Of a stretch of 64,000 bases of DNA, positions 20,201-61,000 are shown one piece after another; positions within the stretch are counted from its first letter, which is position 1; every line of letters starts with the position of its first letter. The stretch spans positions 3,846,001-3,910,000 of the forward strand of contig CM119373.1 in NCBI GenBank assembly GCA_051294905.1, given 5' to 3'. Source of the DNA: Botryllus schlosseri. Its lineage: Eukaryota. The notes beneath the pieces are model-generated. The model saw only the letters and a program-made list of their open reading frames with translations, had not been told where the DNA came from and searched no databases. The position numbers and the translations under genes are program-made.

Positions 20201-23200
20201 AAATACATTCTGTGGACCCAGTTTAACCTTACAAATCAAGGAAAGGCTGGTAATGTGTGCTCGCTTTTAGCGAAGCGCCTATAGAAATAATCAACAGCGA
20301 CACGCATCTCTGGAGCCCTACGCAACAAGCGGGCTAAGGCAATCGATATCATAATAATCTGACATATCCAATGTAAACTGCTTAGACGTAGCCTACATAT
20401 CTCTATCAGCTGAAGGATATTGCGCGAAAATTGGTAGGGACCAAATACATTCTGTGGACCAAGTCCTACTCTTACCGATCAAATAAAAGCTTGTAATGTA
20501 TGCTCATGCTCAATGCTCATTGCTCACACTTAACCATAAAAGCGACTATAGAAAGTATCGACACCCGCCGCCATCAACAGCGCGACTTGTCTCTGGAGGC
20601 CTACACAGCAAGCGGGCTAAGGCAATCGATAACATCATAATCTGACATATCCAATGTAGACTACTTAGACGTAGCCTAAATATCTCTATCAGCTGAAGGA
20701 TATTGCGCGAAAATTGGTAGGGACCAAATACATTTTGTGGACCCAGTTCTACCCTCACAAGTCAAGGAAAGGTTGGTGTGTGCTCGCTTGTACCGAAGCG
20801 CATAGAAAAAGTATCAACAGCGCAGCGTTTCTCTGTGGCGCGGTTGCACATTGTTATTGCCGCGACGTCAGCTGATCCCACTCTCGCCGCTCGGCCACAT
20901 CCTTGCTCTTGAGCTACTCTCGTATCGCCAGACAGCATTGTTGCGTCACACTGCCAATCTACTCAACAATGAATAATTTGAGGCTGATTGTGGGGGTTCC
21001 AGGGCCATGAGTGGAATAAAATTTATATTTTCGCAAGCAGTACAGCGTCAGCTTTCGATTGATACCCGATTCATCAAATTTAATGCTCGGCAAGCCGGTC
21101 AAAAATCACCGTCAATTTGCCTTGGATTAAATGTAAAGTATGACGTGATACAATTTCATTGAACCGTGAGATTTGCTTCCGTGGCCCTGGAACTCCCACA
21201 ATCAGCCTCGAATTTTTCATTGTTATTGAGATTGGCATTGGGACGCAACAATGCTGAACAATGCTGTCTGGTTCCTTTTTTCTTGAGCTACTCTCTCGTT
21301 TCGCCAGACAGCATTGTTACGTCCCAATGCCAATCTCCATAACAATGAAAAATTCGAGGCTGATTGTGGGAGTTCCAGGGCCACGAGCGGAATAAAATTT
21401 ATATTTTCGTAATCAGTGCAGAGTCAGCTTTCGATAGATACCCGTTTTAATGCTAGGCAAGCCGGTCAAAAATTACCGTCAAATTGCCTGTAGCCAAATG
21501 GAAGTTGTGACGTGATACAATTTCACTGAGGCGTGCGATTTGCCTGTGTCGACACCATATAGGACACTATGATGAAATACAGGCAAACCGCGAGCGCAGC
21601 TAGTGGCCAATTTTTAGATTCACTAAAAATTCCTTCTGCTGACACAAGCGCGTTCGGTGGATTTTAATATAAGTTTTTTCAGTGCAGACAGATGGAAATT
21701 AGTGCGGCCTCTACCTAATATAGAAAATCTTTCATCGCGATAGTTTTTAGCGCAAGTTGCATACTCAGCCAAATGGTTGCCGATGGCAGAGTTCATGCCC
21801 ATGGCCTGATTACGTTCTAGTAATCGCAGATCAGTTACGGCTGCGTCTTCGCGAGAGTCCAATGTGCGTGATCTAATAACGCTCGGAACATGTTGTTTGA
21901 TGCGTTCCTGCAAGCGATGAGTTGTTCTTCCCACGTACCGACAATCACAGTGGCACTTGAAATCATAGACTATATTGCTTTGTTGAGAAGCAGGAAGAAC
22001 ATCTTTGCGCGTTGCAGGAAGCAATTGTTTGGTGGTAAACACAACATTAGTTTTTACGTTATCGTAACAGCGATTGCAATGCAGGGCTGCCGTATTTTCG
22101 TGGCTCCAACTATGGACAGTATGCAGCGCCTGCTAGCAGGGTTTGAAAATAGGTAGTGTAGCGGTCCCTGCAACGACTTGTTGCAAGACACGCTGGTATA
22201 GTGCTTGAGTGGAGTGGAGTGGAGTCGACGCTACAGCTACAGTTCCCGTTATACGCACTAGTCCACTGACTAATGACCGCTCTGAGTATACTCTTGCAAT
22301 CCTGATCACACACGCAGATCAAAGGAGCTTTCTTTAATAGCACAGAACAGCCAAATAGTAGAAATTAGTGGTCAGAAACTTGTAGATTTACCAGGTTCAA
22401 ATGATACTGCGGTTCAATAGGAAATAGAAAGAATAAATGATGCGAAATGGAGCCAATTGTCTATCTTACGACTGAAGCGTGAGCGCGCCGACCTCAATAT
22501 GCGGGCTCTGAGACCACGTGCGTCGCAGACTGCCTGTGCCGTCACGCTTGTGGCTTCGAGAGTGACCTACTTACGCTTTCGCGTACAACGGAATTGGGAC
22601 AGCCATTTACAGGTAGGGATATCTTGTCTGTCAATATGGCGTCACAAGACCAACGCTTTGCCTATAGATGGCATGGGAGTGTATTTTGGGACATTGCGTT
22701 TGTGCGTTGCAGCCAAATTTACCAACTTGAAAGAGTCAAGTTACAACCTCCCTACCGAGCCAGAAATCTCCATCACGATCCCCGAATCCGTTCACATAAT
22801 CATCCCAACCACGATTAAAACTCACGTTTCCGTATTTTCTGCGCTGGAAAACCTGAAACGAAATTCAGCAAGTACAATAAAAGTCGCAGAAATCTCACGA
22901 ATTGTCTTGTTTCTTCGAGGTTATGGTTCGGAATTTTGTGTCGCTTTGACCCGCGATTTAAACTTCCGTTCGTCATAAACCTAGGTTCATATCTGAAAGA
23001 TTAAAAATTCTACTCACAGTCCATTTCTCGAGTGCAGCACGTCGTTTTTGTTTGTGAAACTTCATCTCTGAGTAGCGCAGGAGGTGAGGTGAGGGGAGAT
23101 CTTGATCATCACCACCATCCAACCACCACCAAATTCCTTTACGGTCTGTTTTATTAAAGTTTCCATTCAGATTGCTGGCGCTGCAGTTGCCATACCACCA

Positions 23201-26200
23201 GCCTCCTTCGGCCCACTTAGAAGAGCAATTATCTGACGACCAATCGTCGTGATCCGCGTCATTCGTCGAGAATTGTCGATTGTTATGATATATGAGAGCA
23301 TTGTAGGTTGCATTCCCGGAGTATCCGGACACGTGCAGCGTGTAGTTCTCGGATCCGGATCCAATGGTGAAGTTGCTGGAAATGAGAAATGAAGTTAGTT
23401 TATACAGCTCAGTGGTTCGGAGTCTTATCGAACCAGTCGTGCACGACAAGTATTTTGTTGACTTGCTCACTCAAGCACCTTGCACTTGCACTTTGCACTT
23501 TCCGAGAGAACTACTGACTTTTCGCGTTTTGCGCTCTGACTCGATGTGAGGTGGAAAGCGGTTATGAATGACACACTCTGGTCTGTCATGAGTCATGATT
23601 GGGGCGACTATTTGGTGATGTAAACAATGAGGAATCTTGACCCAAAAATTTTGACCGGGAAAAAATTATCTTGGCAAAATTTGTAAACAATTTGTGGCTA
23701 ACGCTCTAATTTTGACTTATTTTCGACAATTAAAAACAATTACCACCATAGTCATGACGCGAGATCAATTATTTGATGCATTCGACTGGAATACAGCTCA
23801 CACTCACCTGTATCTAGCCCACAAATGTTCTATTTTATATTTCGAGATCATGTTGATTTCCAACGACATGTCTCCTCTCTTTGTCGCTTGATGCAATGCC
23901 TCGAGTCCTGGACACAAAACGTTGTGAAATGATAAATCGCGTTTGTTTTCAATCAATTACGTTCCAACGCAAATGCCAAAGAACGCTACACGAAGTAAAA
24001 TATTTTAGTCATCACAGAATCATGGTTGTAATGATTCGAGTCGCGCTTTTTTGTTGACTCGACTTGACTCAAGTAATTTTCGTAATTACGGAAAGTGAAT
24101 CGACTCGGCTTGATTAGATTTGTGCGACTTCTAGTCGAGTCAGTGCGCATGGCACGGCCAAGATAGGCATTTCATTGTAGCTTAGATGAATAGAAAGTTA
24201 CCAAAGTATTGGTATTATGTCTGTGTGGTACTTGAAAAAAGGGCTGCAAATTTTGAGATTCAGGAAAATCACTATTAGGACCATCACCAAAGTAATTCAG
24301 GTATTATTTGGTTTAAAATCCTTGAGCACTTTTTGTCAAGAATGTTATAGTATGGTGTCAGAATCTATTCGCCAGTCGAACTATAGTAAAATTGAGTGAG
24401 TTCTAAATTAAATATTTAATTCGATGAAAATATTGACCAAACATATTGACGTAATATATATATATATATATATATATTTAAACAAATGAGATATTATCAA
24501 TTTGATGGCAGCCTAAAATAACCCTGGTTGTATTCATATACAGACGACTCATCTTTTTATTCAACTGACAAAGTCGCTCATATTCCGTAAGGCTTAATGA
24601 AAATCAGCTATTAATTTGATCATAACGCATACACGCAAGAAACATTAACAAGATGTTACAAGGTGGTCATCTCGATTAACACATCTGTACATCATGCGTA
24701 TTTCTATTTCGACCTATTTTTTATTTTTATTTATGAAGAAGCAGACCCTCCGCAGCCATTACTTTTCCACGCAAAAATTCCATAAAACGCTACACGAACT
24801 AGGATATTTTTGTTATTACAAAATCAAGTAATTTATTACCAAGATAATGACCGAGTTACGATAACGGAAAAAATCCTACAACTTGAAGGAAACAAATTAC
24901 AACAACCCCACCGAGCCAGAAATCTCCATCACAATCTCCGAATCCATTCACGTAATCATCCCAACCTCGGAAAAAACTCACGTTTCCGTATTTTCTGCGC
25001 TGGAAAACCTGAAACGGAATTCAGCAACAAGCAATCATTGTTGCAGAAATCTCACGAATATCCGTTCGATGTTTTGGTCCAAAATTTTGTTCAATCTGAC
25101 TTCAACTTTTGTTCATCATAAATTCCACTCACCTTCCATTTCTCGTGTGCAGCACGTCTTTTGTAAATCTTCATCTCCGAGCAGCACATGGCGTCATCCC
25201 ACCCCCACCACCAGATTCCCTTCGAGTCCGTTTTGTTGAAGTTTCCATTCAGGTTGCTGTAAGTGCCTCTGTCGTGATACCACCAGCCTCCTTCGAATTC
25301 AGAAGCGCAATTCCAGTACGACCAAGCATCGTGGTCCGCGTCGTACGTTGAGAACTGTTGATTGTTGTGCATTGACAAAGCATCCCAGGTTGCATTCCCG
25401 GAGTATCCGGATACGTGCAGAGTGTAGTTCTCGGGTCCGGATCCGACACTGAACCGCCTGGAAATATCAAAAGCAATTCTCATTAGCCTACATCATTCTT
25501 TCCATTCGGCCAAAGGCTATTTACGCCGCTAATCTATAAATTTTCCCTCGAAATTTGCATCGTAGTTGAGTTTGGTGATGACGCAGCAATGGCCGATTGC
25601 AGCCGACTGATTTTCAAGCTCACCTGTATCCCGCCCACCGATGATCCTTTTCATCTTTCGACATCATGTTGATTTCCAACGACATGTCATCTGCCTTTGT
25701 CAATTGATGCAATGTCTCGAGCCCTGGAAACAAACGTTGCGAGATAAGGGGAAAAAGTTATTACATAATAATTACTCAGAGCCAGACAATGACCAACAAA
25801 ACGTTGTGAAATGATAAAACGCGTGACGCGAAATCAAGTTATTTATGACCAAATTACCGTATCGACAAAATTCTACGACTCAAAGCCATCAACATCTTTC
25901 TCACCGAGCCAGAAATCTCCTTTGTGATCCCCGAATCCATTCACGTAATCATCCCAACCTCGGAAGAAACTCACGTTTCCGTATTTTCTGCGCTGGAAAA
26001 CCTGAAACGGAAATCAGCAACAAACAATCAAAGTTGCAGAAATCTCACGAATGGTTTTTTGTTTACGAGTCCGCCAGTCTACGGTCATGGTTCATAATTT
26101 TGAGTCGCTTCGACGGGTTTTCAACTGTTGTAGCCTACGTCTTAAACCAATGATCTGAAAGATCCCAATTCTACTCACAGTCGACTTCTCGCTAGCAACA

Positions 26201-27767: not shown

Positions 27768-28608
27768 GTATCTTTTCTTAAACTCTATGTAATTTCGTGG
27801 GCCCCTTATCAAAAGTCACGCTATACCCAGAGGGGGTCAATGTACTCAAGTAAGCTACTCAAGGACAAGTAAAAGTAGTGCTTTTAAAAGCAACCTAGAA
27901 TTACGTCAAGTAGAAGTAGAAGTGACTGAATTTAAATCTACTCGAATTGAATCAAGCTCCGTTCATATCTAATGAGAGTACAGTCGTATAAGCAGGGCAT
28001 AGAAACATTTCACCATCTATAGATTGGTATAAGAATCAGAGCATAGACAGATTTCAAAAATTTGATTAGAATTGGATAGCCAAGCATTTGGCATCTAACC
28101 GGCATCTAATTAGACAATTAGAATTAGACCTATCTAGCTGTCCATTAGGGCTGTTCAAAATTTGGAAAATCTTTGGAATGCTGCGTGTCCATGGCGTTAT
28201 AGCGTGTTCTATGTCATGGGCGCGCGTTCTTCTTGGTCCGCGGCTCGGTATAGATACCGTTGACACGTTAGCGTAAAGTCTTTTGTTAAAACAACTAAAA
28301 CATGACGATGCTTGTCCGACGGAGACTGAAAAGCGACTGCTCCTCGGACGGTGACTGCAAGGCGACTGACAACATTGGTTCGCAACATCAAGAAATACCC
28401 AACATAATCAGTAATCAGCGCGAGGGTAATTACGGTAATAATGGAGCGGTACACTACAGCGTAATATGTAAATTATTGTTAAAACACAATAATGGGCCTG
28501 AAAGAAGCTCGCAAGAAGTCGGTAAGATTTGTCTAAATGCGTTTCAAAGTCGTTGTTGAAGAGTGGGCGGGCCGCCACAGCAGACTTGCGAAAAGGCGGG
28601 CGAACACG

Positions 28609-31600
28609 AGTAGTGTATGTGATCGGTCGCGAGCTAACGTTTTTTGCATGGGGCTCTTATGGGCGGGGTGGCACGGTGCCGAGAAACCGGGGGTGGCACG
28701 GTGACCCTTATGTCTTATGGCGGGGGTGGCACGGTGCCATTGTGTCTTATGGCGGGGGTCGCACGGTAACCCTTTTCAGGATAGGCTGCGGCGGCACGGT
28801 GACGTGAAAACTCGTGGTCGTGACTCGCCTTTTTTGCTATAGGCGGTGGCGGTGATTCGCCTGTCATGTATTCTTACGGGATCTGTGGTGACTCGCCATG
28901 TGTTCTTATGGGTGCGGTCGTGAATCGCCCTTTCGGGTATAGGCATCTCTCGCACGGTGTGGAATATGTATCAGGTATATTGATCACGTGATTGGTCCTT
29001 AGTTAATGTTTACATTCCAAATTATTATATATGACCAATTTGAAGTAATCCCAACGTTTACGGTGAGTGCGGTATATTATATCGTTATTCTTATGGACGC
29101 GGCGATGATTCGTACTTTGGGGTAGAGACTGCGGGCGGCATGTCGTACTTTTAGCAAAAAAGGGTGTGAAATAGTTTGCTAAATCTAGGAATCACTTGCT
29201 TGGTAATATTTTGGTAATTAGTTTACCACAGAGCCGGCGTAGACGGTGATTCAAATACCAACAATAGCCGCGTTCACATACTAACACTTCAAAAAGGTGT
29301 GAAATATTTGTAAAATCCTACGATCGCCCACAAGATAACACCTCAGACATAGGCATCTTTCACGACTTGGTGTCATAACCATACCGATCGCTCACGCGGT
29401 GAAATTTTAGTAATCAGTTTGTCACAGAACTCGATTTCGCTGGTAAGATTTAATAAGTAACGACTAACAGAACCGCCAGTGTCGGTAACTTGAACAGCAA
29501 CAAATTGCCACTTATTTCCGTCCTAACCCTAATCCTTTGTGAAGTGAACGCTTATTCAAAAAGGTGTGAAATAATTTTAAAATCCTACGACCGCTCACAG
29601 GGTAATGCTCCAGACATAGCGATCGCTCATGATTTGGTGTTACAGACATACCGATCGCTCACAAGGTAATACTTCCGTAATTAGTTTGTCACAGAGTCGT
29701 CACAGACGGTGATTCGTAAACCAACAATTTGACACGCAATCGCTATATGTTTTGACACCTCGGATAGTGGTTGACTTTAGTTGCGTGATAAGTTCCATGA
29801 AAATATTCAATCAATGTATTAATTTGTCAACTAGAAATGAAACTCACTAAACAACTCAAGTTAATTCGTATCTTAATGTTTTAATTCGGTACAACTCTGA
29901 TCCTTTTAGAAATTCTTTTAATGCGATCTTTTGAATCGACCGTAACCTGAATATTACTGACGCCGACTTTCAGCCACATCGAATTATTCGCACATTCCGC
30001 GTCGCTGTTTTCACACCTATAGAATCAACACCAACTATAACTCTACAAGAATCAAGAATCACAAGTATGTGCATTATACAGGTATTGTCTTTATCAACTT
30101 GAAATCAAACTCTTAACAAAAACACGCAACTTATCATTTACCAACTCTAGTATTACCAAAAAATCAGGTAGGTCTATTGTTGATTGAAAATCCTTGAGTC
30201 CTTATTATCAAAAACGTTATAGTGCGGCGTCGGAATCCATTCGCGAGATGTACTAAAGGTAAATACAGATAACCCAAAATGAACTATCTCGACTTTGACA
30301 TAGTCTGAATTGAAATAGATTGACAAACATAACTACCAACTTTCACCCAGTCACATTTCGAAATTATACGCATATCGATTTGAAACAAGTAATGAAATAT
30401 TACAACTATATTCGCGATCGAACTTTCCGTTTGGCAAAGATAGTTTCAGAAATACTATCACTATGATATCTCAACATTTTAACATCTTGCCATACACAAA
30501 AGAGTAAAATACAAAAACCTTGTCAAGTCAATCCGTTTGTAACTTACCCAACCAACTCAACAGTATCCTTATGAAAAGTAGACAAGACTACGCGAGTAAT
30601 CACCACAATCCAAAATCCAAAGCAAGTTCGGTTGTATTCATAGTCCGCCAACTCGTATTTTTTTATTCAACTGTAAAAGTCGTTACTATTCTGTAACCTA
30701 AAGTAATTACTACTCGGTGCGCACAACTTGAGATTAACATATGTTTTGAGTATATGATATTTGAATGTCTGACCGATGTAGTTAAGAATTCATTTCTTAC
30801 GATCGAACACCGGTGTTACATTGAAAGTTATCATGTTGTAAACATTCTTATTAACACGTTGGTTTGACATACGAGATTTTGTAATTGTCGATCACGACTT
30901 GATTAATAAATTATGACTTAATTAGACCGGGGTTGTGTTAAAAGTTATGACAGCAACAAACTTTTAAGAAACATTGTTATCAACATATTGATTTGTAAAA
31001 CTAGATTAGCGCGCCTGAAATGTTCTTGATTTGAAAGATATTCCGTGTTGGTACAAATCACTCTGCGTATCACGGATATCAGAAAATATTTTTACAAATG
31101 TAGTTGTTTCCAGTAACCAAGACTAAAGATGACACAACAATTTCGTTATTCAAACATTGAACACCCGGCGCAAAATGCTTTATCGGTCAAATTCGTGACG
31201 GCTAATTGAAACGACTACGTATAGAGTCAGTATATTACAATTTCATGTCGTTACTATTGAATCCAGCAATTGATACAATTTGTTGTCGGAGTTGTGACAG
31301 CGCATTGAAACATACACAACTTACAGAGTGTGAAAATATCACTTCGGGTATCAAGTACCGTTTGAAGCGTGCGATCAATACATAATTCCGTTTGCACTCT
31401 CTAAGAAGTTGTGAAGTCTACAGATTTACACTTCAAGACTTTGATCAACATATAAGCAATTTGGAATATCTTTACTGGACGCATCCTATTCTACTAGACT
31501 TGAGTATACGCGAAACTCATAGCATTGACAAAATCGCAATAGGCGCTACACTGAAATCTACAAAATGTGTTTGTATTGTTGTTAGTGATCATAAATTATC

Positions 31601-34600
31601 ATTTGAATAAGTAATTGTAATCATAAAACCAAACTTGCGAAAGTCATTACCATAACAAAAGAATATTGTAGGTTGCTTGCTAAATGTATGCCGGAAATAT
31701 TTGTAGAACGCTCACGACCAAAGAAATCGGAAATTTCCCCCCATTGTCATTCGTCAAAGTATATGTTGTCACAATACTCATCCCGTAAAAGATCTTACTT
31801 GTATGTGATTGAATCGCCGGTAATCAACCCACTAAACCGAACTCCAAAGAAATTATACTCATTCGATGGATATGAAACAGCGTCGCTTAATCGGTCTATA
31901 CCGTTTTTCTAAAGGTAAATCATATCCATCCAATGGAAAACAATTTTCACTAGCTTGGTAATGAAACCGAAGTCTTCATTCAATATTTTGTTTGTGTCAA
32001 ATACTTTGCAATAAACACACTGGAGTGGTTGAGCTTTACATCATCAGACTGTAATCTGTAAATCAAGCTTACATCCGATTTGTAACTGTATTGTTTACCT
32101 AACCGAGTTGTATGCACAGTTTGATATTTTTTCATTTAGTGATTGTTGAACATACCACTTCGAAATACTGCGTTGATCATAATTTCCATCATCGCGATAA
32201 GCGAAGTACATTTGTTTTGAATTCATAACAATCGGCTTTTCTATGACATGATAAATTATTGACAAGTTCTGCTTAGAAGATTGGTTGCATATCACGAAAA
32301 ATAATATACCACTCATATTAATACTGTTACTCCATTCATCGGTATTTTTTCCGTTGTCGATTTTCAAACGAGTAAAATTTATTACTTGAGTTGCTCTGCT
32401 TACTATATTTAAATGTAAACTCGCCCGTCTTTCAACAACAACCAATGTTAAAAAAGTATGCAATCAAACACAACAAGTTTTACTGTAGGACACTAATTAT
32501 TATTCCACATAACTCATTTCTTACCGAAGACATATGAAATATATTCATGTTACACGAAAATACTCGATATTCGCTCGTGCTACGAACATACGCAATGATT
32601 GGTGACGCTTTCAAACTGTTTCGATATCACAAGAACTTTATTGTCTGAATGGGTGTTCATGTATCTTAATATTCAAATAGTTCAACACAGAACTAGTACT
32701 AACAGAAACATCAGAGCTGTTTACACAAAAGTTTGTATGTGTACAGTATGCGAATACCATGTGTAAGTCCAGCACAATTGCGGTATCCATCCGAGTTTAG
32801 TTAACACAAATTTATTACAACGGAGCCACGTAAACTTTCGTGAAAGAAAAGCAGACTCACTTCCAGAGGGTTATGTCAACGCCATAGCAGTAAATCAGCT
32901 ACTCCAACAACAAAGTACATATGTTTTCTGGTCACGGTCCTTACATCTTTCACACAGATCAATCTACTTTGCTAACGAAGAGTGCTGAGTCATCACATGA
33001 TTGCCCTCACAACAAAACAGCTAGAAGATATTATCATACAAAAATATTTTTAACCCTTTGCGCACCAGTGACAAATCATACAACAAACATTTTTGTGAGT
33101 CGAATTGTTGTCCAGTGTCAAGTCTACCTGTTGAAACGTACATTAAAACAACACAGTCACAATTCAATTAAAACCACGAATCTATTTTCATTTCGTCACA
33201 AACTGTCACATACAGAAAAATAAATTTTCTTACCCCAACACATACTTGTAACCAATCGCTTTCATTAAACACACAACTCCATAAAAGTATTTACTTTCTA
33301 CAACATATACATTCCGATGTAGTCAAGAAATATTTGTATTAATCAAAATCATCGATTTCTGTTCACGGCGTTAGTGTGTGCATGTCATACCTGTGGGCCC
33401 CGTATTAAAATGAACACGACACGACTGAATGTAAGGGGATAGAAGTCTATCGCATCGATTTACATGTGGTCTTCGCTACGGTTTCAAAAAACGAATCATC
33501 TATTTTGCATTGGTCGAGACCGAGCGAACCAGTTACATGTATTCGCGGTAATGATTTTGCTAGTCATATGCGAATGATAAGGTTGCTACTCCGACAAATC
33601 AAATCAACATACAACAATATTCTGACGATCATAATAGCAATTTCATTTTCCGCCCCTTCGTAATTGTATACGCACGAAAAGTATATTGTACAACTCGGCA
33701 ACTACGTTTAACAAGACCTATCACACTACCTGCGTTGAACACAAGATACCTACCCAAGTCAAAATATCATACTGGTTTGGACAACTGGCGTTTACCTGTG
33801 TAAAATTATTATTTTCACTTGGAGGTCAACCGTTACCTGACTAAAAATACCATTATCCTTTGGAGATCTTTGGTTTACCCAGAGTAACAATACATTTTCA
33901 CTTGGAAATCTATCTTTTCCCTGAGCAACAAACCATTTTCACTTGGCTGTCCGTCGTTTGCCCGAGTAAAAATATCATTTTCCTTTGGAGATCTTGCGTT
34001 TACCCAGAGTAACAATACATTTTCCCTTTGGGTTCTATCCTTTCCTAGAGTAACAAACCCTTTTCGTTAGCAAATCTATTTTTTTCCTACAGCAACAAAC
34101 TATTTTCACTTGGAAAAATACTTTTACCTAGAGTAACTAATCATTCTCTTTTGGAAATATATTTTCTCCCCGGGCAACAAACCCTTTTTGTTTGGAAAAC
34201 TATCATTTACCTGAGTACCAATACCGTTTTCACTTGGAAATCTATCTTTTCCCTGGGTAACAATACCATTTTCGTTTTTGAAAACTGACAACCACACCCG
34301 ACAATTTGATATTTTTATATATTGTTACAACGGGCAGTGATAAAATATGCACCAACAACCACTCCGATACATTTGTGTAATCGCATATTCACTTGTGCTG
34401 GTGCATCCCATCAAAATCATCGGTTACCCACATGCAATGCGCTCTTGTATATCGAAATGCATGTTTTCGGAAATTGGCCAATAGGTTGCAATTTGTCTGT
34501 GATGTCCGGGTTCGTGCTTTGGATTTTCCAGAGTCAAAATGTCTGAATAAAACACCTCCTCGACGATGGTTGGTATGTGGATAACGGTGTTCGGAAAACG

Positions 34601-37600
34601 GTTGGATTTATGTCATCCATCGCGATAACAATTCCGGGTCGAGTTTTCCCCCGCATGTTTACTATATTGTGTCTTTATTGGTCAATGTATGTCTCAACAT
34701 TCAGTTTGAAATCGGAAGCCATGATAAAGTATGTAACCGGATCCGGATATCAACTCTGAATCGATAAACCAATGAACAATATTCAAAGTAAACATGTTAC
34801 ACCCTGTATTTCCACGAAAAAATACCATCCAGACATACGTCGCGCTTGTTTGCCCACACCAGTATACGCGTAAATGGATGTGTACATGCAATGTGTTGGT
34901 ATACAAACATCGGGGAGTAAGCCTTCGATCCACAGACATTATCATTGCCGGTAATTTTGATACAGATCAAATGTCATCACACCCGATAACAATTTCATAC
35001 CAATAAGCCACATTGCAATGACTCTGAGTCAATCTGAAGCATGACATACATACACACAAACTTGGAACCGTAACATGGGTTATTCGCACGACGGTGAAAG
35101 TGAACTATACAGCATATACCAATAGAGCGTTCACAGTCGAATATGCGAACCATGCACAATCATATACCCTGGTTTTTGTTGGATATGTACGAAACCAATA
35201 AATCGATACATTCGTTCTGCATCAAAATTACCGGCTATGATAATGTCTGTTGATCGAAGGCTTACTCCCCGATGTTTGTATACCAACAAATTGCATGTAC
35301 ACCTCCATTTACGCGTATACTGGTGTGGGCAAACAAGCGCGACGTATGTCTGGATGGTATTTTTTCGTGGAAATACAGGGTGTAACATGTTTAATTTGAA
35401 TATTGTTCATTGGTTTATCGATTCAGAGTTGATATCCGGATCCGGTTACATACTTTATCAGGGCTTCCGATTTCAAACTGAATGTTGAGACATACATTGA
35501 CCAATAAAGACACAATATAGTAAACATGCGGGGGAAAACTCGACCCGGAATTGTTATCGCGATGGGTGACATAAATCCAACCGTTTTCCGAACACCGTTA
35601 TCCACATACCAACCATCGTCGAGGAGGTGTTTTATTCAGACATTTTGACTTTGGAAAATCCAAAGCACGAACCCGGACATCACAGACAAATCGCAACCTA
35701 TTGGCCAATTTCCGAAAACATGCATTTCGATATACAAGAGCGCATTGCATGTGGGTAACCCATGATTTTGATGGGATGCACCAGCACAAGTGAATATGCG
35801 ATTACACAAATGTATCGGAGTGGTAGTTGGTGTATATTTTATCACTGCCCGTTGTAACAATATATAAAAATATCAAATTGTCGGGTGTGGTTGTCAGTTT
35901 TCAAAAACGAAAATGGTATTGTTACCCAGGGAAAAGATAGATTTCCAAGTGAAAACGGTATTGGTACTCAGGTAAATGATAGTTTTCCAAACAAAAAGGG
36001 TTTGTTGCCCGGGGAGAAAATATATTTCCAAAAGAAAATGATTAGTTACTCTAGGTAAAAGTATTTTTCCAAGTGAAAATAGTTTGTTGCTGTAGGAAAA
36101 AAATAGATTTGCTAACGAAAAGGGTTTGTTACTCTAGGAAAGGATAGAACCCAAAGGGAAAATGTATTGTTACTCTGGGTAAACGCAAGATCTCCAAAGA
36201 AAAATGATATTTTTACTCGGGTAAACGACGGACAGCCAAGTGAAAATGGTTTGTTGCTCAGGGAAAAGATAGATTTCCAAGTGAAAATGTATTGTTACTC
36301 TGGGTAAACCAAAGATCTCCATAGGATAATGGTATTTTTAGTCAGGTAACGGTTGACCTCCAAGTGAAAATGATAATTTTACACAGGTAAACGCCAGTTG
36401 TCCAAACCAGTATGATATTTTGACTTGGGTAGGTATCTTGTGTTCAACGCAGGTAGTGTGATTGGTCTTGTTAAACGTAGTTGCCGAGTTGTACAATATA
36501 CTTTTCGTGCGTATACAATTACGAAGGGGCGGAAAATGAAGTTGCTATTATGATCGTCAGAATATTGTTGTATGTTGATTTGATTTGTCGGAGTAGCAAC
36601 CCTATCATTCGCATATGACAAGCGAAATCATTACCGCGAATACATGTAACTGGTTCGCTCGGTCTCGACCAATGCAAAATAGATGATTCGTTTTTTGAAA
36701 CCGTAGCGAAGACCACATGTAAATCGATGCGATAGACTTCTATCCCCTTACATTCAGTCGTGTCGTGTCTATTGTAATACGGGGCCCACAGGTATGACAT
36801 GCACACACTAACGCCGTGAACAGAAATCGATGATTTTGATTAATACAAATATTTCTTGACTACATCGGAATGTATATGTTGTAGAAAGTAAATACTTTTA
36901 TGGAGTTGTGTGTTTAATGAAAGCGATTGGTTACAAGTATGTGTTGGGGAAAGAAAATTTATTTTTCTGTATGTGACAGTTTGTGACGAAATGAAAATAG
37001 ATTCGTGGTTTTAATTGAATTGTGACTGTGTTGTTTTAATGTACGTTTCAACAGGTAGACTTGACACTGGACAACAATTCGACTCACAAAAAATGTTAGT
37101 TGTATGATTTGTCACTGGTGCGCAAAGGGTTAAAAATATTTTTGTATGATAATATCTTCTAGCTGTTTTGTTGTGAGGGCAATCATGTGATGACTCAGCA
37201 CTCTTCGTTAGCAAAGTAGATTGATCCATGTGAAAGATGTAAGGACCGTGACCAGAAAACATATGTACTTTGTTGTTGGAGAAGCTGATTTACTGCTATG
37301 GCGTTGACATAACCCTCTGGAAGTGAGTATGCTTTTCTTTCATGAAAGTTTACGTGGCTCCGTTGTAATAAATTTGTGTTAACTAAACTCGGATGGATAC
37401 CGCAATTGTGCTGGACTTGCACATGGTATTCGCATACTGTACACATACAAACGTTTGTGTAAACAACTCTGATGTTTCTGTTAGTACTAGTTCTGTGTTG
37501 AACTATTTGATTATTAAGATACATGAACACCCATTCAGACAATAAAGTTCTTGTGATATCGAAACAGTTTGAAAGCGTCACCAATCATTGCGTATGTTCG

Positions 37601-40600
37601 TAGCACGAGCGAATATCGAGTATTTTCGTGTAACATGAATATATTTCATATGTCTTCGGTAAGAAATGAGTTATGTGGGATAATAATTAGTGTCCTACAG
37701 TAAAATTTGTTGTGTTTGATTGCAAACTTTTTTAACATTGGTTGTTGTTGAAAGACGGGTGAGTTTACATTTAAATATAGTAAGCAGAGCAACTCAAGTA
37801 ATAAATTTTACTCGTTTGAAAATCGACAACGGAAAAAATACCGATGAATGGAGTAACAGTATTAATATGAGTGGTATATTATTTTTCGTGATATGCAACC
37901 AATCTTCTAAGCAGAACTTGTCGATAATTTATCATGTCATAGAAAAGCCGATTGCTATGAATTCAAAACAAATGTACTTCGCTTATCGCGATGATGGAAA
38001 TTATGATCAACGCAGTATTTCGAAGTGGTATGTTCAACAATCACTAAATGAAAAAATATCAAACTGTGCATACAACTCGGTTAGGTAAACAATATAGTTA
38101 CAAATCGGATGTAAGCTTGATTTACAGATTACAGTCTGATGATGTAAAGCTCAACCACTCCAGTGTGTTTATTGCAAAGTATTTGACACAAACAAAATAT
38201 TGAATGAAGACTTCGGTTTCATTACCAAGCTAGTGAAAATTGTTTTCTATTGGATGGATATGATTTACCTTTAGAAAAACGGTATAGACCGATTAAGCGA
38301 CGCTGTTTCATATCCATCGAGTGAGTATAATTTCTTTGGAGTTCGGTTTAGTGGGTTAATTACCGGCGATTCAATCACATACAAGTAAGATCTTTTACGG
38401 GATGAGTATTGTGACAACATATACTTTGACGAATGACAATGGGGGGAAATTTTCGATTTCTTTGGTCGTGAGCGTTCTACAAATATTTCCGGCATACATT
38501 TAGCAAGCAACCTACAATATTCTTTTGTTATGGTAATGACTTTCGCAAGTTTGGTTTTATGATTACAATTACTTATTCAAATGATAATTTATGATCACTA
38601 ACAACAATACAAACACATTTTGTAAATTTCAGTGTAGCGCCTATTGCGATTTTGTCAATGCTATGAGTTTCGCGTATACTCAAGTCTAGTAGAATAGGAT
38701 GCGTCTAGTAAAGATATTCCAAATTGCTTATGTGTTGATCAAAGTCTTGAAGTGTAAATCTGTAGACTTCACAACGTCTTAGAGAGTGCAAACGGAATTA
38801 TGTATTGATCGCACGCTTCAAACGGTACTTGATACCCGAAGTGATATTTTCACACTCCGTAAGTTGTGTATGTTTCAATGCGCTGTCACAACTCCGACAA
38901 CAAATTGTATCAATTGCTGGATTCAATAGTAACGACATGAAATTGTAATATACTGACTCTATACGTAGTCGTTTCAATTAGCCATCACGAATTTAACCAA
39001 TAAAGCATTTTGCGCCGGGTGTTCAATGTTTGAATAACGAAATTGTTGTGTCATCTTTAGTCTTGGTTACTGGAAACAACTACATTTGTAAAAATATTTT
39101 CTGATATCCGTGATACGCAGAGTGATTTGTACCAACACGGAATATCTTTCAAATCAAGAACATTTCAGGCGCGCTAATCTAGTTTTACAAATCAATATGT
39201 TGATAACAATGTTTCTTAAAAGTTTGTTGCTGTCATAACTTTTAACACAACCCCGGTCTAATTAAGTCATAATTTATTAATCAAGTCGTGATCGACAATT
39301 ACAAAATCTCGTATGTCAAACCAACGTGTTAATAAGAATGTTTACAACATGATAACTTTCAATGTAACACCGGTGTTCGATCGTAAGAAATGAATTCTTA
39401 ACTACATCGGTCAGACATTCAAATATCATATACTCAAAACATATGTTAATCTCAAGTTGTGCGCACCGAGTAGTAATTACTTTAGGTTACAGAATAGTAA
39501 CGACTTTTACAGTTGAATAAAAAAATACGAGTTGGCGGACTATGAATACAACCGAACTTGCTTTGGATTTTGGATTGTGGTGATTACTCGCGTAGTCTTG
39601 TCTACTTTTCATAAGGATACTGTTGAGTTGGTTGGGTAAGTTACAAACGGATTGACTTGACAAGGTTTTTGTATTTTACTCTTTTGTGTATGGCAAGATG
39701 TTAAAATGTTGAGATATCATAGTGATAGTATTTCTGAAACTATCTTTGCCAAACGGAAAGTTCGATCGCGAATATAGTTGTAATATTTCATTACTTGTTT
39801 CAAATCGATATGCGTATAATTTCGAAATGTGACTGGGTGAAAGTTGGTAGTTATGTTTGTCAATCTATTTCAATTCAGACTATGTCAAAGTCGAGATAGT
39901 TCATTTTGGGTTATCTGTATTTACCTTTAGTACATCTCGCGAATGGATTCCGACGCCGCACTATAACGTTTTTGATAATAAGGACTCAAGGATTTTCAAT
40001 CAACAATAGACCTACCTGATTTTTTGGTAATACTAGAGTTGGTAAATGATAAGTTGCGTGTTTTTGTTAAGAGTTTGATTTCAAGTTGATAAAGACAATA
40101 ACTGTATAATGCACATACTTGTGATTCTTGATTCTTGTAGAGTTATAGTTGGTGTTGATTCTATAGGTGTGAAAACAGCGACGCGGAATGTGCGAATAAT
40201 TCGAAGTGGCTGAAAGTCGGCGTCAGTAATATTCAGGTTACGGTCGATTCAAAAGATCGCATTAAAAGAATTTCTAAAAGGATCAGAGTTGTACCGAATT
40301 AAAACATTAAGATACGAATTAACTTGAGTTGTTTAGTGAGTTTCATTTCAAGTTGACAAATTAATACATTGATTGAATATTTTCATGGAACTTATCACGC
40401 AACTAAAGTCAACCACTATCCGAGGTGTCAAAACATATAGCGATTGCGTGTCAAATTGTTGGTTTACGAATCACCGTCTGTGACGACTCTGTGACAAACT
40501 AATTACGGAAGTATTACCTTGTGAGCGATCGGTATGTCTGTAACACCAAATCATGAGCGATCGCTATGTCTGGAGCATTACCCTGTGAGCTGTCGTAGGA

Positions 40601-41574
40601 TTTTAAAATTATTTCACACCTTTTTGAATAAGCGTTCACTTCACAAAGGATTAGGGTTAGGACGGAAATAAGTGGCAATTTGTTGCTGTTCAAGTTACCG
40701 ACACTGGCGGTTCTGTTAGTCGTTACTTATTAAATCTTACCAGCGAAATCGAGTTCTGTGACAAACTGATTACTAAAATTTCACCGCGTGAGCGATCGGT
40801 ATGGTTATGACACCAAGTCGTGAAAGATGCCTATGTCTGAGGTGTTATCTTGTGGGCGATCGTAGGATTTTACAAATATTTCACACCTTTTTGAAGTGTT
40901 AGTATGTGAACGCGGCTATTGTTGGTATTTGAATCACCGTCTACGCCGGCTCTGTGGTAAACTAATTACCAAAATATTACCAAGCAAGTGATTCCTAGAT
41001 TTAGCAAACTATTTCACACCCTTTTTTGCTAAAAGTACGACATGCCGCCCGCAGTCTCTACCCCAAAGTACGAATCATCGCCGCGTCCATAAGAATAACG
41101 ATATATTATACCGCACTCACCGTAAACGTTGGGATTACTTCAAATTGGTCATATATAATAATTTGGAATGTAAACATTAACTAAGAACCAATCACGTGAT
41201 CAATATACCTGATACATATTCCACACCGTGCGAGAGATGCCTATACCCGAAAGGGCGATTCACGACCGCACCCATAAGAACACATGGCGAGTCACCACAG
41301 ATCCCGTAAGAATACATGACAGGCGAATCACCGCCACCGCCTATAGCAAAAAAGGCGAGTCACGACCACGAGTTTTCACGTCACCGTGCCGCCGCAGCCT
41401 ATACTGAAAAGGGTTATCGTGCGACCCCCGCCATATGACACAATGGCACCGTGCCACCCCCGCCATAAGACATAAGAGTCACCGTGCCACCCCCGGTTTC
41501 TCGGCACCGTGCCACCCCGCCCATAAGAACCCCATGCAAAAAACGTTAGTTCGCGACCGATCACATACACTACT
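28609..41574. mobile_element. 12,966-bp palindromic non-autonomous Polinton/Maverick-like element
   Basis: Ends are AGTAGTGTATGTGATCGG...CCGATCACATACACTACT, flanked by AACACG (28603-8) and AACACA (41575-80). Arms 28609-34966 and 35216-41574 are reverse complements, with mirrored ORFs in the track. Unique spacer 34967-35215. No intact ORF. Confidence 0.8.
33770..34285. repeat. Degenerate 41-42-bp tandem array, about 12 units, in the left arm; mirrored at about 35897-36410
   Basis: Units such as ATTTTCACTTGGAAATCTATCTTTTCCCTGAGCAACAAACC recur head-to-tail. Confidence 0.85.
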
Positions 41575-42518
41575 AACACAAAAGCACGGTTCTTGATTGG
41601 GTAATCGGCTAAGCTTCATTGATTACTGCAACAGCTGACTCGGATTCGGGTGCTTCGCTCTACTAAACTGAAAGTCTGCTGTGCTGAGGTCGAGTATGTT
41701 CCCAGCAAACACAGAACCGTAAAAGAACCCATCGGGATGGTTTCGAAGGGTTATTTTAGGGTTTCGATTTTTATGTTTCAGAGGTATGTTTAATATACGT
41801 AGAAATGAAGATCTTGAGGATCAAATTATTCGGGATGAATTCCAATTTGCTGGTAAGTATTCTGATGTGGGAAGTTATTTGGATCCGCGGTAGATAACGT
41901 TGCGCGTTTATAGAGTGCTATCATCAGTATAAATTCGTGTTACTCACTAACTCAATCGAAAAAGTCAATACGAAGACATCCCGCGCCGTGTTTAAGGACA
42001 GGCATAACTCTGATGAGTTTGGCGAATATTGGCATTGCGAAATCTTGCATTACATCCATTGTGTCGTTCTCGTTCGCGGTGAATATCTGTACACAAATTA
42101 TTATCGATCACTTTTAATTCGCGAGTCAACCTTGTACAAACGACCAATTCACTGTTTTTCTTAAGTTCTAGTTGCTAATTTTGAAATGTGAGTAGTTATA
42201 CTTCTAGTTCTTGTGGATGATTAAAATACTTATAAAGCAACCAGATCTGAACTGGAACTGAATGGTGATACCGATATCTTGTTGTGTGGTGTTATTGCGG
42301 CCATTTCTGTAGCGAAGAGTCATCACTATTGGCAGTGGCACAGTCAGGGGTAGGGCTTTGGGGGTCGAAACGCCTCCCTTCTCAAACCGGTATTCCCGTA
42401 CATTTGAAATATCGATTCTATGTCCAATATTTCCTAGCTAAATTGGCATTTAGTAATTCGTATCATCAGTTGTTGTTAGTTGGTTAGTTGCGGCCTTTTA
42501 ATGGGCGTTAGTTCTATG

Positions 42519-58098: not shown

Positions 58099-61000
58099 TT
58101 AACACAAATTGCATGTCTTCTGACACATTCTTAGAACGGAAGGATATTGTCTCCCGTCGCAGTATGTCTTCCACGACGGACAGTATCGATTCTTGTCGTC
58201 GCATTCTGTAAAAGTGGGGATACGATTGAACTAAGGATGACAACCTGCCGCATCGACTGTGCAAGGTTAGGAACGACCTGGATTCGCCATATCGCAGTAT
58301 ACGAAGCATGAAGTAGGCCTACTCTACGAACGGCAGTTGAAATGACATTTCTGTGAAGTCGTGGTCGACCCACCGGCCACAGCATTGTCACAAAGTGCAG
58401 TGAAAAAAGGTGTGGTCGTTAATGTGATGTGGAAGTTGTTCTATATTTTTCGCAGAAGTCGCAGAATTGGTACACATCAATCATACTGTATTAGCGCCAA
58501 ACTGAGTAATACTTAAATACTCAACTCCAGAATCATTCTCGATTCAGAATGCAGAACAGGCTTACTCTATTTTCCTAGTTGTACTGACCGCCTCTGAGAT
58601 ACGACACAGCGTATTCACAAATTTTCTTACGTTGTTGAGTGCACCGGTTGCAGCTCTTTTTGCACTTGATAAGCATGTAGCTCGGGTTTCTAGTGCATTC
58701 ACCGACTCTGGCCCACGCTCTGCAATTCCTATTCTCGTCAACGCAGGATCCAGTAGGTTTTCTGGTGGTCGTTCTTTTGGTCGTAGTGGGTGTGATAGTA
58801 GAGGTGCCGCACTCTTTACAGCTTTTCTTGCAGTTGACAAGCATATAGCCTGGGTTTTTCTTACATTCACCTCTGTCCGCCCATGATTTACAGCGGTTAT
58901 TTTTATCCGTGCAGGATCCTCCGGGTTTGGTAATGATTGGGCGGGCCGTGGTGGTTGTGCCGCCCGAGCCCTTGGTGCAGCCGTACATAGCATTTAGCTG
59001 TTTCGCGTCTTCCGTTGATAGTCCGTTTCTCTGAACCAAATGATACAGTCTGCTAAGTCGATGCATTATCAAACAACCTTGTAGGCCTGCGATAAATATC
59101 AACAACGAGGAGATCATGAAATCAAAATCACGCAGAGGGCCCGCCTGCGCAAATGGCGCGACGCTCACCGCTACGCTATCCCAACAACTTATAAATTCCA
59201 AAATGTGTGTAAACTCATTATCAGTATCAAAACTAGCTCGGTGTGTGGGAATAATGACCCGTCTGCAATCTTTGGTTTCCAGATCAATACTACGAACCAT
59301 ATATTTTTCTCTTTTCCACTCTCACCTGCAATATGGAATCGTAGTATGGGGAAGTGCATGCAAAACATTTCTGTGCAGAATTCGAACCCTGCAAAACCGT
59401 GCGACACGGCTGATCTCATCTGTACCTTTACGTACCAATTTATCGCCTTACTACCGTAAGCATCGAATTTTGCGAGTTGATGAGCTATATCGCTTCGAAG
59501 TATCAAAAGTTGTTCACAAATATTTTTCCAATAGTCTGCCTCCTGTGTTTGATGACTTTTTCATACCTGCTAAAAATGTCCATTCCCATTACACGAGATC
59601 CTCGTCAAAGGGAAATATCTACTTACCCCCACCCAATAGCAACCTAACTAAGAGATCTATCGACTATTCGGGACCTATCATTTGGAATGCATTACCACCA
59701 CATATCCGTGAATTGCCTTATGACAGATTCAAAAAAGCCCTACTTGATCACCTCTTATCGTTACACTAACACTGTTGCCCTACCTCGCCCAGACATTGCT
59801 TCATTGATCATTTGCTACCATCGTTTACTTTTTCTTCTATTTTATTTTTTTAACTACTGTAACTTTTTTTACAGCCAGACTGTTTAGAGTCAAGTGTACC
59901 TGTTTGATTCTGGTGTGATCAGACTAGATGACCCTCACGGTCTTATCGATCATTCCTATCTAATACCGAATACTGTGCATGCATATTTTCTGTACCACCA
60001 CCACTGCCGTGTGTTATGTATTTTGGTTTGATGAAAAATAAAGACTCTCTCTCTCTCTCTCTCTCAGTACGTCTCCAGCCCAGCTCTACACTGACAGAAA
60101 CATACCTACTTCAGAGAATGATTTCACGTGGATTTCTCGTGGCTTAAAAGCATTGAATGCCTTGATTTAATAGAGGTGAAGTGATTTTGCACGCGTCTTC
60201 CTACAAGAGCTCCTTGGAAACGCCTCTGAAACTGAGTCATGATAATAAGTTGTAACCATTTCACAAGGCTCCGAGCCACTAGTCAATCTCACATTTTTAG
60301 TTTAAACTCGTGTCAAGTCGAGTCATTTTCAATTCACCCCCGAGTCAAGTCCGAGTCCAAGTCACCGAGCAGAGGGACGAGTCCAAATCATAGTATTATG
60401 ACTCGAGTCCGAGTCCAAGTCACTGTGTTGACTGCTCAGTTTCCCGTTGAAGTCTTGATTAAATCCACTTTTCATGTAACTCTGTTTGGTGATATCGAAT
60501 AGATCGAATTTTTAATGTACTTATTTTCCTCACTTTTAACAGTTTCTGGTCGAATTTTCAAGTACCAGTATTAATACTCGAAATCCCAACAGTGAGGTTA
60601 CTTTACTATTCTTCGAAATTACAATGAAAAGTCGGTCTTGGCCGTCTGAGTCTCGAGTCATATGACTTGCTCCGAATCATATCGAGTCGAGTCATTTCCG
60701 TATTTTAACAAAATTACTCGAGTCAAGTCGAGTCATCAGAATATCGCGACTCGAGTCGAGTCGTGACTCGAGTCATTACAACCCTGATACAGAGTAAGGA
60801 TAACGACAAAATCAGTTTCATGAATTGTTCCGATACCTGTCCGAGGCTTATTCCAGATCGTTTGGGAGTGATCGTTTGTCGACCGTTGGAAGAGAATGCG
60901 GTCGAGGAATAATGCATCAAGGAGTTGTAATCGTACGGGGAGTTGAAGGAGTTGATTTTGGACGTCCCTTGCTTTTGGAAGTTGTATTGAACGCCTGGAA

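Follow-up and report, generated by a model that had tools for sequence, protein, structure and literature searches.

A palindromic non-autonomous transposon family with Maverick-type ends in the Botryllus schlosseri genome, and a candidate helper among its resident Mavericks

Maverick (Polinton) elements have a signature of 5'-(AGT)2//(ACT)2-3' ends together with target site duplications (TSDs) of 6 bp; intact vertebrate copies are 12.7-24.6 kb long, their terminal inverted repeats (TIRs) average about 400 bp (range 46-1447), and vertebrate genomes contain 22 copies on average, with a median of 8 (excerpts of PMC8097293; for the signature also excerpts of PMC8969392). The excerpts of PMC8097293 further link the reiterated (AGT)n ends to 'jumping-back', and those of PMC4196379 mention, at second hand, a 'racket-like' single-strand intermediate proposed for Polintons. 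The present analysis concerns a stretch of 64,000 nucleotides from Botryllus schlosseri (assembly GCA_051294905.1, contig CM119373.1, positions 3,846,001 to 3,910,000), hereafter the window, and a palindromic element of 12,966 bp within it (28609-41574). This element is quite probably an aged, centrally deleted copy of an abundant non-autonomous transposon family, here named P, which is a TIR-sharing derivative of lineage D, one of four Maverick lineages (A to D) present in the same genome.

Like Mavericks, P has (AGT)n ends, a 6-bp TSD, TIRs and a size of the same order. Unlike them, it lacks genes for PolB, integrase, ATPase and capsid, its inverted repeats occupy about 93% of the element whereas the TIRs of lineages A to D in this genome are about 200-455 bp long, and it is present in about a thousand copies against the vertebrate average of 22. 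By its ends and TSD, P falls within the cis definition of a Maverick, and by its shared TIRs within that of a non-autonomous derivative; it is not an autonomous Maverick because it has neither PolB nor integrase. P also resembles transposons of the MITE type, in that about 450 bp of terminal sequence are 95-96% common to it and a coding partner, the interior is unrelated to that partner, and the partner is far outnumbered, but it differs from them in being nearly partner-sized and a near-perfect palindrome with a selected gene of its own. A full-text literature search, outside which lay Repbase and the subscription journals, found no description of a palindromic non-autonomous Maverick.

The window element consists mainly of two adjoining inverted-repeat blocks, one of 4486 nt at 99% identity (28609-33094 / 37089-41574) and one of 1885 nt at 98% identity (33090-34974 / 35208-37092). 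When the arms are aligned globally from end to end, they differ at 70 of 6366 aligned bases (1.10%), 42 of the mismatches being transitions and 9 lying at CpG, and by a single one-base gap; a chance origin of the palindrome is excluded. A first-pass annotation, made from the letters of the window alone, had described such arms around a spacer of 249 bp, of which the arms are confirmed and the spacer is corrected to 233 bp. The element starts with AGTAGTGTATGTGATCGG and ends with the reverse complement, ...CACATACACTACT (AGTAGT...ACTACT), between a left flank AACACG and a right flank AACACA, whose only difference is G to A in a CpG. These ends, and the duplication with its CpG to CpA difference, were read directly as that annotation had given them, and its assignment of both to the Polinton/Maverick type agrees with the (AGT)2//(ACT)2 signature published in the excerpted PMC8097293. 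The features of the element are as follows.

28603..28608, no strand: left TSD copy AACACG, by direct reading; 5 of 6 positions match the right flank
28609..34974, plus strand: left arm, 6366 bp, from the inverted-repeat blocks and the arm alignment
28609..28629, plus strand: terminal box, composed of (AGT)2, a variable hexamer and then GATCGGTCG; a conserved family end, seen in the window and 8 other copies
28688..28929, plus strand: subterminal tandem repeats of about 32 bp in two short arrays (Tandem Repeats Finder); mirrored near 41254-41495, coordinates computed from arm symmetry
33811..34277, plus strand: internal tandem array, 41-bp unit, about 11 copies (Tandem Repeats Finder); mirrored near 35906-36372
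34975..35207, no strand: non-palindromic spacer, 233 bp, all that is left here of a unique family centre that normally measures about 0.9-1.0 kb
35140..35223, minus strand: stump of the central gene, its last ~28 codons, ...MYRFIGFVHIQQKPGYMIVHGSHI (tblastn, residues 64-91 of the protein of copy C4, E 4e-7)
35208..41574, minus strand: right arm, ending ...ACTACT, reverse complement of the left arm
41575..41580, no strand: right TSD copy AACACA, by direct reading

The stump of the central gene falls within a minus-strand stop-to-stop open reading frame (ORF) at 35131..35406, and no ORF of the window arm is longer than 122 aa. None of 71 stop-to-stop ORFs of at least 45 aa scored above the cut-off in a Pfam search, and an Rfam search of the window element and of one full family centre returned nothing.

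The genome searched was the window's own 495.5-Mb assembly. The terminal 500 bp of the window element have 86 matches there (40 of 2671 first-look candidates scored), many of which form inverted pairs at a spacing of 11-22 kb. Counts of the 20-nt core AGTAGT-N6-GATCGSTC are 1148 in forward and 1138 in reverse orientation, compared to 0 and 3 for a reversed control. Among the first 100 listed terminal motifs, all on contig C1, 34 form pairs with the same variable end tag, and 20 of the 34 same-tag pairs span 12.5-15.6 kb. Each of the nine inverted pairs retrieved has long inverted arms: in six, which are simple palindromes, the arms measure 5.5-6.8 kb, and copies C1 and C14 are palindromes with foreign insertions, that in one arm of C14 being an LTR (long terminal repeat) retrotransposon with gag, protease, reverse transcriptase, RNase H and integrase domains, which accounts for the sole rve match in any P copy. 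The C11 copy (L035-L037, C11:14931870-14954715) is 22.8 kb long and has four arm segments of alternating orientation and two centres within a perfect TSD, GATGTT. In nine other copies the arms are colinear with the left arm of the window element (66-90% identity, block by block), and the array of 41-bp units is present in seven of seven compared copies.

Every copy for which both ends were resolved (n=10) is flanked by a 6-bp TSD, eight of them perfect and two matching at 5 of 6 positions; an eleventh, C14, has no right end and was left out of this count. The first-pass annotation had proposed looking for other palindromic copies with different 6-bp TSDs, and nine are now known, eight perfect and one at 5/6 (GGCGCC, GACGAT, GATGTT, GACATC/GACATA, GGGGTT, GATGTG, CACGTG twice, and CACGAG). 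Because ten TSD-flanked copies are present and the layout recurs at many loci on many contigs, the family is a real transposon, and an artefact of assembly is excluded as the main reading of the palindrome. A canonical P element is 13-15 kb long, with arms of 6.2-6.9 kb and a unique centre of about 0.9-1.0 kb that contains one ORF of 91-94 aa; its ends are (AGT)2-3, a conserved GATCGSTCG box and then subterminal repeats, and it is bordered by a 6-bp duplication.

The shared, non-palindromic centre of copies C2, C5, C4 and C8 (888-983 bp) encodes an ORF of 91-94 aa, from ATG to TGA, on the same strand and in the same place, which is also intact in C14. The window spacer aligns at 87-88% identity to the first ~170-230 bp of the C5 and C2 centres, and about 760 bp of the C5/C2 centre are missing from the window. 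The family is therefore not without a gene: its centre keeps a conserved ORF of about 91 aa, most of which the window copy has lost. Among ten copies examined by tblastn, five have the ORF whole, the window retains about 28 codons, and four have no trace of it. The ratio of nonsynonymous to synonymous substitution rates (dN/dS) is 0.12-0.34 in six of six pairwise comparisons, indicating that the ORF is under purifying selection. Genome-wide, the central protein gave 1201 first-look candidates; identity to the query is 90% or higher for each of the 150 that were scored, 145 of which are without an internal stop. Inside the listed end pairs of C1, matches to this small ORF are mostly near the midpoint of the pair.

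The central protein matches nothing in Pfam at E 0.1 or better. Six unnamed relatives of 90-95 aa were found in public assemblies and none in viral and metagenome contig collections; the 27 matches to the terminal box in viral contigs are each single, internal to the contig and unrelated to the arms. A structural model of the protein is all-beta, the best prediction having a pLDDT (predicted local distance difference test) of 76.8 and the other four 33-44; its best fold matches are to small beta-sandwiches (Z up to 5.3, Foldseek E 0.02), a weak lead towards the alpha-crystallin/CS type. WD40-repeat proteins, an equally weak lead, matched a profile of the protein (E 1.7e-7 and 2.2e-4), yet hhalign puts the probability at 44%, and all hits of a protein atlas search scored below 0.9 with low recognition. 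The protein is probably a family-specific accessory factor.

Lineage D includes the candidate helpers of P. The lineage-D integrase is 51-52% identical to that of lineage A in an unbroken frame of 359 aa, and the C-terminal domain of its PolB, in frames of 1212-1242 aa with no stops, is at 42-45% identity. On C1, three of the four lineage-D integrase matches that are within range of listed ends lie inside P-type end pairs (17.3, 18.3 and 20.9 kb); a PolB match adjoins each integrase in these pairs, and likewise in a 15.1-kb pair on C15. The resulting lineage-D elements, 15-21 kb long, are the following.

C1:5923771-5942033: PolB and integrase inside P-type ends
C1:19020275-19041196: PolB and integrase inside P-type ends
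C1:19598838-19616100: PolB and integrase inside P-type ends
C15:9185123-9200177: PolB and integrase inside P-type ends

The exact 20-nt end AGTAGTGTAGTAGATCGCTC has 13+14 occurrences in the genome. It bounds two of the PolB/integrase elements, and it also bounds a verified palindrome (C15:753707-767608), a pair of 13.8 kb in which the small ORF lies close to the midpoint, and another of 24.5 kb that holds two small ORFs. TIR sharing was measured between a single coding element and a single P copy: the two ends of C1:5923771-5942033 align with nucleotides 1-441 (96%) and 1-455 (95%) of the palindrome C15:753707-767608, with no match beyond (800 nt tested). The first-pass annotation had named the lack of any Polinton with the same ends as evidence that would tell against it; the outcome is in its favour, since lineage-D Mavericks carry the same box, and one has a TIR of about 450 bp in common with P at 95-96% identity. 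A further pair of 14.3 kb, C15:6997554-7011833, has ends 82-85% identical to the first 450 bp of a palindromic copy and contains a lineage-D integrase match, with no PolB among the matches listed (126 of 252 PolB candidates scored); it may be a PolB-deleted intermediate between coding and palindromic forms.

The Maverick lineages were reached from a Pox_A32 ATPase search, which led to a Maverick-A element of 17.8 kb (C2:2211650-2229478) with AGTAGT...ACTACT ends, TIRs of about 255 bp, the TSD TACGTA, and genes on one strand. Among its products are an integrase (350 aa) that carries rve and chromo domains, a 274-aa ATPase of the A32 type, and a 1314-aa ORF in which family-B polymerase motifs occur in order; this ORF, taken as the PolB, was recognised only by its motifs, and it has no match among Pfam and PDB sequences. 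Searches of the whole genome with PF03175 (pPolB) yielded nine candidates and no matches, and those with PF00770 (adenain) yielded no candidates, while the controls also gave nothing; these blanks are misleading, the PolBs here being too divergent for PF03175. Searches with PolB and integrase distinguished the four lineages (A at 97-100%, B at about 67-76%, C at about 60-70%, and D), and most Maverick copies found have unbroken frames. In lineages B and C, one copy each shows AGTAGT ends together with TIRs of about 200-215 bp and a 6-bp TSD that is perfect. As TIR partners of P, lineages A, B and C were rejected: they are without the P terminal box and have no other DNA similarity to it, and a box-like site inside a lineage-B copy is a chance match. 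Moreover, none of 43 Maverick-A ORFs matched eight P copies or 30 P terminal loci by tblastn. The first-pass annotation had found no PolB or integrase in the window element, which holds in view of arm ORFs of at most 122 aa with neither a Pfam match nor a Maverick-A tblastn match.

Several observations on these resident Mavericks are recorded in their own right. Otherwise unalike, the TIRs of A (L051:4151..), B (L055:2524..) and C (L053:4358..) have in common, within their first 40 nt, a CCAATC motif that is rich in C and lies about 28-38 nt in from the end; P is without this motif. A (G/T)TGCCAC-like heptamer is repeated both in the lineage-C TIR and in the subterminal repeats of P, which could be chance. 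The Maverick-A PolB (L050:5281-9222 (-)) has a segment with ...HGCFFHSCDRCY... at residues ~830-845, between the exonuclease and polymerase motifs, as well as a stretch around residue 324 that resembles C2H2 (zf-C2H2, E 0.014); these may be inserted nuclease or zinc modules. At five of 35 scored PolB places (lineages A, B and C) the nearest listed small ORF is 35.3-39.3 kb away, and the next nearest is at 103 kb (C4:15227232/15191926, C11:2516691/2552902, C2:36479217/36442192, C12:13174927/13137101, C10:14685364/14724681). About 0.085 such spacings are expected by chance, and lineages and orientations differ among the five; the spacing could reflect the geometry of transposable element nests, targeting or an artefact.

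The arms of P copies change in concert. In seven of seven measured copies the nearest relative of an arm is its partner in the same copy (98.1-99.9% identity over 5.6-6.8 kb, with 0 to 70 mismatches per copy), whereas arms of different copies are 75-88% identical and alignable over 1.3-5.7 kb only. Lineage-specific segments on the scale of a kilobase sit in both arms, for example a block in C7. The copies with imperfect TSDs have the most diverged arms (1.10% in the window; 97.0-98.3% identity in C1), and the six measured copies with perfect TSDs have an arm divergence of 0-0.53%; by our count, the chance of such an ordering among eight copies is 1 in 28. On the simplest reading, a copy has identical arms when it inserts and these diverge afterwards, in which case symmetry would be restored during propagation and not in place.

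The arm frames that are open in at least five of seven copies are only those of the tandem arrays, on both strands, and were discarded as an artefact of these arrays; the same test recovered the central ORF as its positive control. A scan of substitutions for codon periodicity was also discarded when its own positive control failed. A few arm frames of 60-122 aa are common to three or four copies. In C7 the lineage-specific segment contains a 224-aa open frame in each arm (L044:1407-2078 (-), L045:669-1340 (+)); a Pfam search of this ORF and of a 155-aa ORF of L049 found no match.

The probable derivation of P from lineage-D Mavericks suggests how the family might propagate. The lineage-D PolB would start replication of P in trans, by protein priming at the (AGT)n ends. 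The displaced single strand would fold on itself at once, as the hairpin extreme of a 'racket' intermediate, and the growing strand, or repair, would copy one arm from the other (copy-back), so that the palindrome would be renewed in each round of propagation. The lineage-D integrase would then insert the copy, making the 6-bp duplication, and after insertion the arms would decay independently, as LTRs do. Copy-back renewal is proposed because arms are nearly identical within copies while lineages drift by 12-25%; if each copy were born symmetric in this way, the mirroring of kilobase-scale lineage differences would follow.

Three other explanations of the window element were weighed. The first-pass annotation had inferred a single snap-back event: a Polinton-like genome had one of its ends copied back on itself, and the resulting defective-interfering genome was integrated at this locus. 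The palindromic shape, the Maverick ends and the absence of replication genes all suit such an event, and, according to excerpts of a review, snap-back defective genomes are highly symmetric palindromes (PMC13506859). P further resembles snap-back or copy-back defective viral genomes in having two identical replication ends, in helper dependence and, by the mechanism proposed here, in the regeneration of arms from each other. Inverted-repeat defective genomes have been reported from incomplete particles of adenovirus. As a one-off, however, the accident is refuted, since about a thousand copies, spread over many diverged sublineages, have the palindrome as their normal form; P is a lineage integrated in the germline, long-lived and diversified, and not a by-product of one infection. 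Nor did the comparisons reveal a copied-back Polinton end in the arms: they are without nucleotide or protein similarity to Maverick A, the lineage-D match stops at about nucleotide 455 of the 800 tested, and no parental sequence is recognisable in P beyond the TIR. Such an accident is therefore considered unlikely, and these sequence comparisons give no support to the idea that the arms began as a snapped-back Maverick end, although snap-back could be the remote origin of the P family as a whole.

Still fainter credence is given to a cut-and-paste transposon of the foldback type, mobilized by a non-Maverick DDE transposase, with arms kept alike by chromosomal gene conversion. Foldback elements (Drosophila FB, Galileo and similar) too have very long inverted arms with internal tandem sub-repeats, and the only gene of P is far too small to encode a transposase. 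On the other hand, the arms of P are largely unique sequence and ten times as long as the TIRs of Galileo, which reach up to ~1.2 kb. Foldback elements belong to other transposase families with other TSD lengths, that of Drosophila FB elements being 9 bp, and P has its end motif, TSD length and ~450-bp TIR in common with elements that encode PolB and a retroviral-type integrase. That arm divergence tracks TSD decay also speaks against strong conversion in place. A falsely mirrored contig segment has a negligible probability. Long palindromes are generally known as a failure mode of assemblers, but the same layout occurs at many loci and contigs with precise ends and locus-specific 6-bp duplications, and there are real substitutions between the arms of one copy. 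The junction of arm and spacer (34917-35023) is also crossed by a contig from a public run that shows no difference there, but the assembly itself may have been built from the same run.

The derivation of P from lineage D, with its symmetry renewed during propagation, has points against it as well. The link between D and P rests on coordinates and on one DNA search with the TIRs of one element, and so must be taken as provisional. AGTAGT ends and 6-bp TSDs are features of lineages A, B and C as well, so that more than one lineage could act as helper. The copies were sampled by similarity to the end of the window element and not at random. Some are asymmetric, C7 having eight gap events over 118 columns, and both the window copy and C7 have one-sided central deletions; such copies indicate that symmetry is not enforced in place. 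Efficient gene conversion in master copies could give the same pattern of divergence.

Observations on the insertion of P elements complement this picture. At C1:16768420-16810257, three elements with different end tags (14.7, 28.7 and 41.8 kb) are nested, which implies that the family inserts into its own copies. Four pairs of small ORFs lie close together on the same strand (C12:7182342/7193528, C11:18267059/18273032, C13:4150498/4158032, C11:22198396/22207233), suggesting more multi-centre copies like that of C11. Multi-centre copies look like partial dimers integrated as a unit, or tandem duplications of the central part; they fit an extrachromosomal replicative phase without proving one. 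Among the TSDs of ten P copies and three Mavericks, an ACGT-like core is present in CACGTG (twice), CACGAG, GACGAT and the Maverick-A TACGTA, and GATGTG, GATGTT and GACATC could be CpG-decayed versions of ACGT-like targets. This small sample of TSDs may reflect a weak preference for palindromic targets.

In public-run contigs of three samples, summed depth is many-fold higher inside the window element than in its flank; these contigs are unitigs of about 100 bp, too short to reveal empty sites or to span the palindrome. One bulk RNA run placed 126 reads on the stretch, all of them only partly; as the window copy is without the gene, the run is uninformative on its expression. Bulk RNA-seq reads cover 28200-28436 of the window, with loose ends before 28377 and behind 28420. 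The loose ends resemble the two edges of a short spliced exon (about 28377-28420) located some 190 bp upstream of the element, which may therefore lie in an intron of a host gene. Nearby ORFs at 22973-23467 (-) and 25091-25489 (-) match Fibrinogen_C (E 9e-17 and 4e-14), and an ORF at 58575-59318 (-) contains ShK domains (E 4e-16); these host-type coding pieces point to an invertebrate animal genome.

P is unusual in its combination of about 93% inverted repeats, a copy number of around a thousand, and a retained, selected gene in the loop, and the relatives of this small conserved gene are all unnamed. Motif counts give an estimated load of P of about 15 Mb, or about 3% of the genome, provided that most copies are full length. 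An animal genome thus tolerates about a thousand near-perfect palindromes of 13 kb. Long palindromes are usually thought to be fragile, and they are potential sources of long hairpin RNA. Elements of this type can easily be put down to errors of assembly or go without a classification in repeat annotation.

To our knowledge, the replication of Mavericks/Polintons has never been observed directly, a folded single-strand intermediate and protein priming both being deductions. The arms of P, if renewed together at propagation and decaying thereafter, would report on the mechanism of Maverick replication, and the genome offers about a thousand natural replicates along with resident candidate helpers that look intact. 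A more far-reaching proposal, which is possible but at present doubtful, is that lineage-D Mavericks have in P elements their true satellites (hyperparasites). These would be linear replicons primed by protein; once displaced, their strand would snap into a 6.5-kb hairpin, giving them a replication advantage over the helper as well as automatic copy-back renewal, and their 91-aa loop protein would recruit or redirect the helper's machinery. Under this proposal the length of 13-15 kb would be held by packaging in the helper's capsid; speculatively, a packaging constraint might explain why P has stayed near that length despite drift, close to the 15-21 kb of its partner. If the proposal is true, P would give Mavericks/polintoviruses their first described satellite system in an animal and offer a natural read-out of their replication.

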